DNA from: Elusimicrobiota bacterium
GTDB taxonomy: Bacteria > Elusimicrobiota > Elusimicrobia > UBA1565 > JACRDR01
DNA length: 64,000 bases
Assembly: GCA_041694815.1 (NCBI GenBank)
Contig: JBGFSC010000033.1
Location: 1 to 64,000 of the forward strand
Reading direction: 5' to 3'
Made by a program: the position numbers
Part shown: one piece after another, positions 12,001 to 15,000 of the stretch
Layout of the letters: each line of letters begins with the position of its first letter
Numbering within the stretch: position 1 is the first letter of the stretch

Positions 12001-15000
12001 TGGCACCAAGTTCCTTCCGGGGCTCAACGTGGGCCGCGGCAAGGACGACACCCTCTTCGCCAAAGCCTCGGGTGTGGTGACATTCCAGTGGGCCAAGAAG
12101 GACAAGAAGCGCCTGAGCGTCATCCCTTCCGGCAACGGCGCCGCGAACGGCCAGTAAGACTCCGTTTTCCTCGAGGACCGGCGAGTGACAAACTTCGTCG
12201 ATAAAGTCCGCATTTTTGCCAAGGGCGGGCAGGGGGGAGACGGCTGCCTTTCCTTCCGTCGGGAGAAATACGTAGAATTCGGTGGACCCGACGGCGGAGA
12301 CGGCGGGCGGGGCGGCGACGTCTACCTCGTCGCCGACCGTAATCTTGGCACCCTGCTGGATTTTACCCGTCGGCCCCATCTCGAGGCTTTATCCGGAGAA
12401 AACGGCAAGGGCGCCAATAAGACGGGGCGGGGGGCAGACGATCTTATCGTCTCGGTCCCGATCGGGACGATGGTCTACAAAAGGGACCAATTGCTCGCGG
12501 ATCTAGTCGAAGAGGGCCAGAGGGTGCTCGTCGCCAAGGGCGGCCGCGGCGGCCGAGGTAACCTGTCATTCAAGAGCCAGCGCAACACCGCTCCCCGCAT
12601 CGCCGAGAAGGGCGAGCCCGGCGAGCAGGCCGTCGTCGACCTGGAGCTCAAGCTCATCGCCGACGTGGGCCTGACCGGGCTGCCCAACGCGGGCAAGTCG
12701 ACGCTGCTGGCCAGGCTCAGCCGCGCGCGCCCCAAGATCGCGGATTACCCGTTCACCACCCTGGCGCCGCATTTAGGCGTCGTCGAGCATAAGCGCTCGA
12801 GCTTCATCATGGCCGACATCCCGGGGCTCATCGAGGGGGCGCATCGCGGCAAGGGCTTGGGTGACGCCTTCCTGCGCCATATCGAGCGCACGCGCCTGCT
12901 GGTTCACTTGGTCGATCCGTTGGGCTACGGCGGCAAAAGCGCCGAGGATGGGGTGCGCGTCATCGAGGCGGAGCTTAAGTCTTTTTCCGCGAGGCTGGCG
13001 AAGAAGCCGCGCGTTCTGGTGGTCAACAAGATGGATCTGCCCGAGGGCCCCGTCGTGCTGCGCCGATTGCGCGGCCGCTACAGAACCCGTCCCGTCTTCG
13101 GCATCTCCTGCGCCTCGGGGCAGGGGGTCTCCGAGCTCGCCGACCGGCTCGCCGAGGAGCTCGCCCGCCTGCCTCGGGAGGGCGAGGGGGCGGCCCGGCC
13201 GGCCGGGCCCGAGAAGCTCCTGGTTAGCCCCGGCTTCGAGATCCGGCGGAGGCAGGGGGGCTTCGAGGTCTCGGGAGCCTACGTCGAGCGGATCGTGCGC
13301 ATGGCCGACCTGTCGCTGCCCGAATCGGTCGCGCGGCTGCAGCTGGCCCTGCGGAAGGTCGGGGTCGACCGTGCGCTTCGTAAGGCCGGCATCCAGAACG
13401 GCGACGTCGTTCGCGTGGCGGGGCACGAATTCGAGTGGTCGGACGCCCCCTTCGCCCCACCGCCCCGCATCCCCCGTACCCGGCGCACCCGCATCCAATG
13501 AACACGCTGCGGGAGTACGAGGCGCGGATACAGGACGTGGGAGGCATCGACGGCGCCGTCTTGTTCTGCGAGCGCCTGGCCTCCCGCCACTACGAGAATT
13601 TCCCCGTCGCCTCCAGGCTGCTGCCGCGGCACACCCGGCGCCACGTGGCCGTGCTCTACGCCTTCGCGCGCATCGCCGACGATTTCTCCGACGAGGCCGA
13701 GTACGAGGGCGTGCGCCGCCAGCGCCTGGAGGACTGGCGCAGGCAGCTGTGGGCTATCGGCAAGGAGCCGCCCCGGCATCCGGTGTTCCTGGCCATGGAG
13801 GAGAGCCTCCGGCAGCTCGACCTGCCCCGCGAGCCCTTCGACGACCTGCTGAGCGCGTTCCTGCAGGATGTCGACAAGCGCCGCTACGCCAGCTTCGATG
13901 AGGTGGCCGATTATTGCCGGCGCTCCGCTAATCCCGTGGGCCGGATCGTGCTCATGATACACGGCTACCGCGATCCGGAGCTCTTCAAGCTCTCCGACGC
14001 CATCTGCACCGGGCTGCAGCTCGCCAATTTCTGGCAGGACGTGTCCGTCGATCTGAAAAAGGACCGCATCTACATCCCGGAGGAGGATTTCCGCCACTTC
14101 GGCTACGGCGAGGCGGACCTTCGCATGGGAGTCGTCAACGAGCGCTTCCGCAACCTCATGAAGCACCAGTGGAAGCGCACCCGGGCCCTCTTCGAGACCG
14201 GCCGGCACCTGTGGCCGAGGCTCCGGTTCCCGCTCTCCTGGGAGATCAAGCTGACCTGGCTGGGGGGAAACCAGGTGCTTCATAAGATACGCCGCGCCGG
14301 TTTCGACACGCTGCACCAGCGCCCAGCCCTGACGAAATGGGATTGGATGAAGCTGCTGTTGTTCGGGTGGGCGGCGTGACGGGCGGGGAGGCGGCGGCCC
14401 GGCGCTCGAGCTTCTACGTGGGGTTCCTGTTTTTGCCCTCCGAGAAGCGCCGCGCGCTCACCGAGGTCTACGGCTTCTGCCGGATGATCGACGACATCGT
14501 CGATTCGGGAGAGCTCACCCGTGTTGAAGCCGAGAAGAGGCTTGAGTTCTGGCGCGAGGAGATCGCGCGGCTCTACGAGGGCAGGCCGGGCCATCCCGTG
14601 TCCCAGGCGCTCGCCTACCCCGTCGAGCGCTTCGCCCTGCCGCGGCAGGCCTTCCTGGACCTCATCGGCGGCTGCGCGATGGACTTGGAGCGCCGCCGCT
14701 ACGAGGATTTCAAGGAGCTGGAGGCCTATCTCTACGGCGTCGCCGTCACGGTGGGGCTTCTCTGCGTCGAGATTTTCGGCTACCGTCACAGCGACGCGGC
14801 GCGCGTTCGGGAATACGCGACGCACCTGGGCTACGCCTTCCAGCTCACCAATATCCTGCGCGACGTGGGCGCCGATCTCGAGATGGGGCGGATCTACCTG
14901 CCCCTCTCGGAAATGCGCGCGGCAGGCTACTGCGTCGAGGAGCTCCATAGCCGCCAGCATAACAAGGCCTTCGTGGCGCTCATGGAGGCGCAGTATGCGC

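Follow-up and report, generated by a model that had tools for sequence, protein, structure and literature searches.

Loss of the ribosome-assembly GTPase Der, and very probably of Era, in an Obg-bearing lineage of Elusimicrobiota

The window, a 64,000-nucleotide stretch of one contig of an Elusimicrobiota bacterium, was analysed together with the remainder of its genome (G000; 54 contigs, 2.77 Mb, 97.82% complete and 0.48% contaminated). Three genes lie on its forward strand in the order rplU-rpmA-obg, with rplU first and rpmA directly upstream of obg:

11555..11866, + strand: rplU, ribosomal protein bL21 (TIGR00061, 79.5 bits; cut-off 43.7)
11879..12157, + strand: rpmA, ribosomal protein bL27 (TIGR00062, 121.2 bits; cut-off 90.35)
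12185..13501, + strand: obg, GTPase Obg/CgtA of 438 aa with a GTG start (open reading frame (ORF) plus profile matches)

The third ORF was identified as Obg by NF008955 (511.9 bits) and TIGR02729 (428.7 bits; cut-off 280.25), with its C-terminal extension matched by TIGR03595 (72.3 bits) and its Pfam domains being GTP1_OBG (197.8 bits), MMR_HSR1 (92.1 bits) and DUF1967 (75.0 bits). Both its score and its architecture, an N-terminal Obg fold followed by a G domain and a C-terminal extension, are those of the Obg/CgtA family; thus the plus-strand gene at 12185-13501 is a canonical Obg downstream of L21 and L27. Within the late-50S assembly GTPase set of Der, EngB, RbgA and Obg, it is the only member that G000 retains.

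In bacteria, Der and Era count as essential and near-universal, and both are regarded as targets for antibiotics. Neither was found in G000: the Der profile TIGR03594 reached at most 126.5 bits (cut-off 306.7) and the Era profile TIGR00436 at most 57.3 bits (cut-off 116.25), both top matches being the same MnmE gene (C22:581-1963). The Der of relatives contains two MMR_HSR1 stretches and, in 4 of 4 proteins, the C-terminal KH-like domain PF14714; a six-frame search of G000 gave no match to this KH_dom-like domain at E<=10, and no frame held two tandem MMR_HSR1 matches. The Era proteins of relatives combine MMR_HSR1 with KH_2 (4 of 4), and no protein of ~300 aa in which an Era-type G domain is followed by KH_2 was encountered in G000, where KH_2 exceeded its cut-off only in NusA and in a 310-aa frame of contig C48 that carries no G domain. 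All above-cut-off MMR_HSR1 matches of the genome were accounted for (Obg, MnmE, YchF, HflX, FeoB, IF2, BipA, LepA and a MeaB fusion), and every one of the 13 frames returned by a Walker-A plus NKxD motif scan was assigned, the eight remaining P-loop candidates proving to be MgsA, HprK, CobW, PhoH, two T2SSE ATPases, AtpD and an ABC ATPase. When the Der and Era ORFs of relatives were compared with G000 by tblastn, MnmE was the sole match.

The retained factors are Obg, HflX (445.8 bits), YchF (433.1 bits), LepA (904 bits), BipA (899.1 bits), MnmE (319.2 bits), RbfA and YbeY, and these profile scores bear out the six GTPases (Obg to MnmE) listed as kept in an earlier, genome-wide survey's note on this DNA. 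Added to that note is the absence from G000 of EngB/YsxC (TIGR03598, nothing at E<=1e-25), RsgA (TIGR00157, nothing at E<=0.01) and RbgA (TIGR03596, top match 41.1 bits; cut-off 208.2).

The gene order hflX-(pgsA-like)-der-plsY-gpsA was found in all 13 Der-bearing loci examined, which cover all Der-bearing clades. In 10 of the 13 an ORF of >100 aa separates hflX from der; the one such ORF tested matched PF01066 (pgsA-like). In G000, hflX (C23:31369-32697) overlaps plsY (32694-33329) by 4 nt and gpsA follows, so that the der slot has no space for a gene or pseudogene, and this junction is internal to a contig of 62,745 bp. Among 32 Der-less loci, 30 carry plsY after hflX with no Der match of >=200 bits, and 20 still possess the pgsA-like ORF. 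Neither a Der remnant nor a substitute was detected at the slot; the sole Der-less locus with an insert there (G026) bears an antisense secreted trypsin-like ORF, which is not an NTPase. Because der has been excised from a conserved operon slot within a contiguous contig, its absence is a true deletion rather than a gap of the bin, and the deletion scar proves that it is no artefact. The survey's note had called G000 devoid of Der/EngA, which agrees with profile score, KH_dom-like search and empty operon slot alike; it had also held that no bin gap was involved, as is now evident from the abutment of hflX and plsY and from closed genomes that are Der-less.

The distribution of both GTPases was determined in 301 genomes of the phylum (>=85% complete), with controls and factor counts taken from 80 phylum representatives. 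Der exceeded its cut-off in about 80 genomes (80-81), with bimodal scores of 401-517 bits versus <=151 bits, and it is near all-or-none by family (57/60 in f16 and 6/6 in f6; 0/97 in f4, 0/34 in f5 and 0/34 in f3). None of the 41 genomes in the window's order and 7 of the 196 in its class bear it. The earlier count of 26 in 71 genomes, all-or-none by family, thus keeps its shape in the larger set, as does the statement that most of the class has lost Der; true loss of Der from G000 and most of its class is supported. As positive controls, uL1 was found in 79, RpoB in 76 and HflX in 73 of the 80 representatives, and Obg was above its cut-off in all 80, whatever their Der state.

Era was found in about 175 of the 301 genomes; genuine matches in the phylum range from about 190 to 248 bits (197-207 bits summed where Era is split). 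It is present in 32 of the 40 other genomes of the window's order, similar to the 33 of 41 reported before, and missing throughout two small-genome genera (g6, 0/4; g10, 0/2). Genome sizes in the order span 2.0-4.6 Mb, and Era-less genomes of the phylum reach 2.7-4.3 Mb. Neither Der nor Era was found in 46 of the 301 genomes, among them a closed one (G249; one contig, 2.7 Mb, window's class); other closed genomes have Era only (G064) or Der only (G030 and G041). Both occur together in a single genome (G183). The contig that carries Era in G183 measures 3,023 bp, and the bin is 5% contaminated; this Era forms a long branch, shares 31-38% identity with the 11 other sequences and is possibly a contaminant.

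For the order's Era, 4 of 4 relatives place the gene between two gene blocks, both of which are on contig C4 of G000. There C4 is contiguous and without Era from 10669 to 15261, and IspG and a 317-aa ORF take its place; the absence of Era is less firm than that of Der because this site is rearranged, not cleanly deleted. It could thus be argued that only Der is truly lost and that Era fell in the unassembled part of the 54-contig bin. Completeness is 97.82% rather than 100 (~2% of G000 being unassembled), the family of G000 comprises this one genome, the gene (663 aa) that adjoins Era in two relatives is found on the short contig C45 (7,510 bp), and gaps could just as well account for lone Era-less genomes with Era-bearing sisters (G281 next to G070; G178). 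However, the assembly covers the expected site on either side and shows no Era there, neither on C4 nor at the C45 neighbour gene, after which comes a convergent ORF of 315 aa with a signal peptide. In family f5, era occurs in an apparent ybeZ-ybeY-era arrangement (putative names, by gene size), and on contig C27 of G000 the region 3′ of ybeZ-ybeY carries a convergent ORF and no Era. Moreover, no partial Era match exists anywhere in G000 at E<=10, and whole genera (g6 and g10) as well as a closed genome of the class are Era-less. An assembly gap is therefore decidedly improbable. The absence of Era from G000 is likely real, although on weaker evidence than that of Der, and it is with this reservation that the survey's claim of an Era-less genome stands: the profile search agrees, the rearranged site lends it less support.

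Alternatively, the pathway may have been replaced rather than reduced, with a highly divergent homologue or a newly gained non-homologous protein doing the work of Der or Era. Such a substitute would explain viability, as both proteins are essential in model bacteria (PMC12641178, PMC10582724), yet we consider it unlikely: every TRAFAC G domain of G000 is assigned, its der slot has no insert, and the only insert among the Der-less loci is the trypsin-like ORF described above. EngB, the nearest candidate, was rejected, being patchy (30 of the 80 representatives), absent from G000, f4 and f5, and variable within one genus (present in G195, absent from G108). It has also to be considered that the patchwork arose by gains, from an ancestor without Der (or Era) and by horizontal transfer into some lineages. 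Plain parsimony on an rpoB-rpoC tree speaks for this: it requires 4 changes in the case of Der (at least 8 under loss only) and 10 in that of Era (at least 18 under loss only). However, Der-bearing clades all have Der in the same slot, which makes repeated insertion unlikely, and Der-less loci keep the flanks; furthermore, the branching order in a tree of 12 Era sequences (f25, then f10, then f5, then f2 plus f3) is that of the species tree, and the last bacterial common ancestor is inferred to have possessed both proteins (PMC12641178). The neighbourhood of Era was discarded as evidence of ancestry, its gene context not being conserved beyond family level (12 loci). Gain is thus very improbable, with the choice of loss over gain for Era depending on a 12-sequence tree without outgroup and a species tree whose root is not fixed.

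The absence of Der and Era is very probably the result of a set of true, lineage-wide gene losses. The phylum ancestor would have carried der within the operon hflX-(pgsA-like)-der-plsY-gpsA, from which der would have been cut repeatedly (at least eight times under a loss-only model), one such deletion being basal to a large clade which includes the window's order and f4, f5, f8, f11, f13 and f14. Era would have been lost later and separately in the line of G000 itself, as in several neighbouring genera. With both lost, ribosome assembly would therefore proceed with a much smaller helper set: ribosomes would be built without Der, Era, EngB, RsgA and RbgA, leaving Obg, HflX and BipA for the 50S subunit, and RbfA and YbeY plus LepA and YchF for the 30S subunit. 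We infer that the late 50S step guarded elsewhere by Der is taken care of by Obg, which no representative lacks, and probably by HflX. Against such compensation stand the universality of Obg regardless of Der state and the lack of HflX in 4 of 61 Der-less representatives (all 85-93% complete). Der-less organisms may also tolerate slower or less controlled assembly.

A more tentative proposition, which we rate as doubtful, is that the two GTPases are mutually exclusive in this phylum: the ancestor would have had both, and every sampled lineage would have shed at least one. An ancestor with both is suggested by the conserved Der slot and by the congruence of the Era gene tree with the species tree. 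Sister families are opposite in state (f10 keeps Era, f6 plus f12 keep Der), and about 15% of sampled genomes have neither. In an independent-pairs test (rpoB-rpoC tree, 76 rows) there were four Der contrasts, in which Era went the opposite way in one to three and never the same way (median p 1); the complementarity is descriptive only, since it is not significant on independent contrasts. If exclusion were true, two KH-tailed Era-family GTPases would be mutually redundant, or keeping both would be disfavoured, after some change of ribosome assembly in the phylum, and a bacterium of free-living genome size could manage ribosome building with Obg as the one late-stage GTPase dedicated to it.

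Earlier publications already describe Der loss in CPR and a patchy distribution of Era in Elusimicrobiota. In PMC12641178 (2025), der is reported lost in four CPR classes and kept in >99% of 15,274 non-CPR genomes, which dates the survey's wording that Der is 'present in all bacteria'. In CPR as here, 'essential' ribosome-biogenesis GTPases are missing by class or family in a near all-or-none manner, and der-less lineages keep obgE (PMC12641178). The phylum considered here, by contrast, does not belong to CPR and has genomes of ordinary size (2.0-4.6 Mb for the window's order); its Obg is never lost (80/80), and a conserved operon displays the scar of the deletion. Moreover, der and rplA depend on each other in CPR (PMC12641178), whereas a link of Der loss to uL1 was rejected here: uL1 is present in 79 of 80 representatives, and the sole one without it is a bin of 92% completeness that does bear Der, so that the two losses are not coupled. 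For Era, secondary loss has been described in Chlamydia, Dependentiae and most CPR (PMC10582724, Front Mol Biosci 2023), along with a patchy distribution in Planctomycetota, Elusimicrobiota and Synergistota (its Fig. 1 legend). That article and our data agree that part of Elusimicrobiota lacks Era, but it ties the loss to extreme genome reduction, unlike the 2.7-4.3 Mb of the Era-less genomes here; a family-level map, a connection with Der and a case without both are absent from that review. Work on the minimal translation apparatus of Mollicutes (PMC4014445, PLoS Genet 2014) likewise asks which assembly GTPases are dispensable: hemoplasmas have lost Era and RsgA, and no Mollicutes lack EngA/Der or ObgE, not even those <1 Mb, whereas the genomes without Der described here are three times as large. 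No published report of Der loss in this non-CPR phylum was found; the main text of PMC12641178 does not name Elusimicrobiota, and its supplement may.

Whole families with 2-4.6-Mb genomes, closed genomes included, are without Der. To our knowledge, loss of Der or Era has until now been tied to tiny, host-dependent or CPR genomes. The der-uL1 coupling of CPR is not general, and caution is due where der or era serve as universal markers or as measures of completeness in this phylum. These organisms are natural triple or quintuple knock-outs of the set of Der, EngB, RbgA, Era and RsgA, and as such offer natural knock-outs in which to ask why Der and Era are dispensable.

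The obg gene of the window, on contig C38 of the genome under study (G000; 2,770,893 bases in 54 contigs, 97.82% complete, 0.48% contaminated), lies behind two ribosomal protein genes:

window 11555-11866, bL21 gene, 5′ of obg and before the bL27 gene
window 11879-12157, bL27 gene, between the bL21 gene and obg
window 12185-13501, + strand, obg, intact open reading frame (ORF) of 438 aa

The ORF was identified as Obg by profile search (NF008955, 511.9 bits; TIGR02729, 428.7 bits versus a cut-off of 280.25), and a Pfam scan found GTP1_OBG, MMR_HSR1 and a C-terminal DUF1967 extension. 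Obg was found in 80 of 80 representative genomes of the phylum. The two ORFs directly after obg (window 13435-14379 and 14337-15224, both +; 314 and 295 aa) look like squalene/phytoene-synthase-type enzymes when their translations are read by eye.

Six-frame profile searches over the whole of G000 found neither Der (TIGR03594; top match 126.5 bits versus a cut-off of 306.7) nor Era (TIGR00436; 57.3 versus 116.25 bits), and the top match for both was C22:581-1963, which is MnmE (TIGR00450, 319.2 bits; TrmE_N and MnmE_helical domains; C-terminal CVGK). The Der-specific KH-like domain (PF14714) had no match at E<=10 in six frames, KH_2 exceeded its cut-off only in a 310-aa frame of contig C48 and in NusA, and tblastn with the Der and Era ORFs of relatives matched MnmE alone. 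All nine MMR_HSR1 matches above cut-off were assigned to known proteins: Obg, MnmE, YchF (433.1 bits), HflX (445.8 bits), FeoB, IF2 (748.8 bits), BipA (899.1 bits), LepA (904 bits) and a MeaB-epimerase fusion. EngB/YsxC, RsgA and RbgA (best match 41.1 versus 208.2 bits) were likewise absent in profile searches; RbfA (81.1 bits; gene after nusA-infB) and YbeY (101.6 bits; gene after the PhoH-like ybeZ) are encoded. These results agree with the genome-wide survey's note, which had Obg, HflX, YchF, LepA, BipA and MnmE as the kept set (all six identified here by profile), Der as absent and Era as giving only a cross-match on MnmE.

A scan of G000 for Walker-A plus NKxD motifs returned 13 frames, of which five are among the MMR_HSR1 proteins already named; the remaining eight were identified as MgsA, HprK, CobW, PhoH, two T2SSE ATPases, AtpD and an ABC ATPase. 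The MeaB-epimerase fusion, outside the window, is a single 448-aa ORF (C28:22988-24334; L014:1348-2694) joining a MeaB GTPase (TIGR00750, 287.7 bits, residues 17-309) to methylmalonyl-CoA epimerase (TIGR03081, 121.8 bits, residues 316-445). Upstream of rplJ-rplL-rpoB, C26:1-1700 has no clear protein-coding frame; rplK-rplA does not precede rplJ, and uL1 is on another contig (C10:2393-3058).

The site from which der is missing can be located. In three Der-bearing genomes of the same class (G120, G166 and G210), der has hflX on one side and, on the other, two genes with homologues (plsY and gpsA) on contig C23 of G000:

C23:31369-32697, hflX, overlapping plsY by 4 nt
C23:32694-33329, plsY (TIGR00023, 162.1 bits)
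C23:33304-34311, gpsA, after plsY (NF000942, 315.5 bits)

C23 is 62,745 bp long, and this stretch lies at mid-contig. The hflX regions of 40 further representatives were scored by tblastn for HflX, Der, PlsY and GpsA. The order hflX-der-plsY-gpsA on one strand was found in 13 of 13 Der-bearing loci (families f16, f23, f26, f27, f31, f32, f34, f17, f21, f6 with three loci, and f12), 10 of which carry an ORF of >100 aa between hflX and der. The only such ORF tested from a Der-bearing locus, that of G043, is a CDP-alcohol phosphatidyltransferase (PF01066, 114.1 bits), and the homologue at the Der-less locus of G249 belongs to that family too (109.6 bits). Among the 32 Der-less loci (G000 included), none had a Der match of >=200 bits, plsY directly follows hflX in 30, and plsY or gpsA does so in 31. 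Since this pgsA-like ORF is still in the slot in 20 of the 32, exactly der is missing there; in the other 12 (f14, f5, f4, f2, f3 and f1) it is gone as well. The Der-less clades keep the same flanks and thus show real der deletions in assembled DNA, and the slot that all Der-bearing clades have in common speaks for an ancestral der kept by vertical descent. With the 4-nt overlap in mid-contig, the kept flanks uphold the survey's reading of a lineage pattern rather than a gap of the bin. In one Der-less f4 genome (L143; G026:C25:7756-16305), a 1.26-kb insert occupies the old slot between hflX and plsY; its opposite-strand 391-aa ORF has a signal peptide and trypsin-like motifs, as read by eye.

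Across 301 genomes of the phylum, each >=85% complete, TIGR03594 scores were bimodal (401-517 bits versus 151 or less). Der was above cut-off in 80, and in an 81st (G161) the gene is split over two contig ends.

Genomes with Der, by group
Order of the window's genome: 0/41
Class of the window's genome: 7/196 (f6 6/6, f12 1/1)
f4: 0/97
f5: 0/34
f3: 0/34
f19: 0/10
f25: 0/9
f16: 57/60

The Era profile reached E<=1e-28 in 180 of the 301 genomes. The matches in G041 and G047 are really the two G domains of Der, and those in G036, G049 and G177 probably are too; with such matches taken off, the Era total is ~175. In G067 and G201 a true Era is in two pieces.

Der and Era states among 301 genomes
Der: 81
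Era: ~175
Both: 1 (G183)
Neither: 46

The bin of G183 (340 contigs) is 5% contaminated and has its Era on a contig of 3,023 bp; in a 12-sequence tree this Era has a long branch, with 31-38% identity to the other 11. The 46 genomes with neither include G000, genera g6, g10 and g41, families f7, f9 and f19 (0/10), and others. Closed genomes confirm three states: neither (G249; one contig, 2.7 Mb), Era only (G064) and Der only (G030 and G041). All four Der and all four Era proteins examined have the canonical architecture. The near-absence of genomes with both is the most novel lead, yet it is not statistically established because there are just four independent Der contrasts.

As controls among the 80 representatives, uL1 was found in 79, RpoB in 76 and HflX in 73; the genomes without HflX are 4 of the 61 Der-less (85-93% complete) and 3 of the 19 Der-bearing representatives, two of the latter closed. 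Of the four Der-bearing f16 genomes sampled, three (closed G030 and G041; G002) had no HflX (TIGR03156) match at E<=1e-50; in the fourth, G077, HflX adjoins der. Within genus g28, EngB/YsxC was found in G195 (181.4 bits), not in G108 (98% complete); their RpoB+RpoC tip branches are ~0.006, and the difference reflects a very recent loss or else a gap in the assembly.

For Era the evidence in G000 is weaker than for Der, because its region is rearranged there. Era is flanked by two gene blocks in all four same-order relatives examined, and the counterparts of both blocks are on contig C4 of G000. That contig is contiguous over the expected interval, where it holds an HflK-like gene, IspG (TIGR00612, 515.7 bits) and an ORF of 317 aa that matches no family. 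In G172 and G212 Era adjoins a 663-aa gene, which in G000 is found on C45 with a convergent signal-peptide ORF after it; downstream of ybeZ-ybeY is also a convergent ORF. The rearrangement leaves some room for an Era missed through an assembly gap, but both expected sites are assembled and Era is absent from their DNA, which makes a gap quite improbable. The favoured reading is that Era was lost from G000.

A species tree of rpoB+rpoC (FastTree; 76 rows, 2,601 columns, leaving out four of the 80 representatives without an rpoB match) grouped G000 with f11, f2 and f3 in a starred clade. This is nested in a larger Der-less clade of 37 rows, also starred, to which f4, f5, f14, f13 and f8 belong as well. 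G000 is explained by one old deletion of der at the base of the 37-row clade, whose early branches f8, f13 and f11 have not lost the pgsA-like ORF. Under plain parsimony, Der requires 4 changes and Era 10, and losses only would require at least 8 and at least 18, respectively, for any root. The Era tree (12 sequences, no outgroup) follows the species tree, which fits vertical descent of Era. The Era loss of G000 is younger than its Der loss, as the nearest families mostly keep Era (f2 4/6, f3 28/34, f11 1/1). At the rpoB/rpoC loci (L041-L116), RpoB frames of f3 (1351-1392 aa) are ~100 aa longer than elsewhere in the phylum (about 1230-1330), and RpoC frames are ~140 aa above the usual 1380-1440 in f16 (1532-1549 aa) and in f25 (1529-1541 aa); these look like lineage-specific insertions.

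According to PMC12641178, >99% of 15,274 non-CPR genomes have der and obgE, four CPR classes have lost der, complementarity is seen for der/obgE and for era/rbfA, and der is tied to uL1 and H78; its main text nowhere contains 'Elusimicrobi'. PMC10582724 has era in some, not all, Elusimicrobiota, and PMC4014445 has EngA/Der and ObgE in all Mollicutes. Among the papers listed by literature searches outside subscription journals, judged by title or abstract, none reported Der loss in Elusimicrobiota. The loss of 'universal' assembly GTPases by whole lineages is an event kind already known, of which Elusimicrobiota add a new and well-documented example; it concerns a non-CPR lineage of ordinary genome size. 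The survey's observation and reading, Der lost in the lineage and Era absent from G000, are confirmed and extended.

Of the late 50S assembly factors Der, EngB and RbgA, G000 encodes none; for 30S assembly it lacks both Era and RsgA. No substitute protein was found in searches short of whole proteomes. An E. coli rlmE mutant is reported to be rescued by overexpression of Obg and likewise of Der, which suggests that the roles of the two overlap. In vitro 50S reconstitution is aided by ObgE and Der together (work cited in PMC12641178). hflX is a member of the very operon that der left. In G000 the late 50S step may be covered by Obg and perhaps HflX, and late 30S maturation by RbfA together with YbeY.
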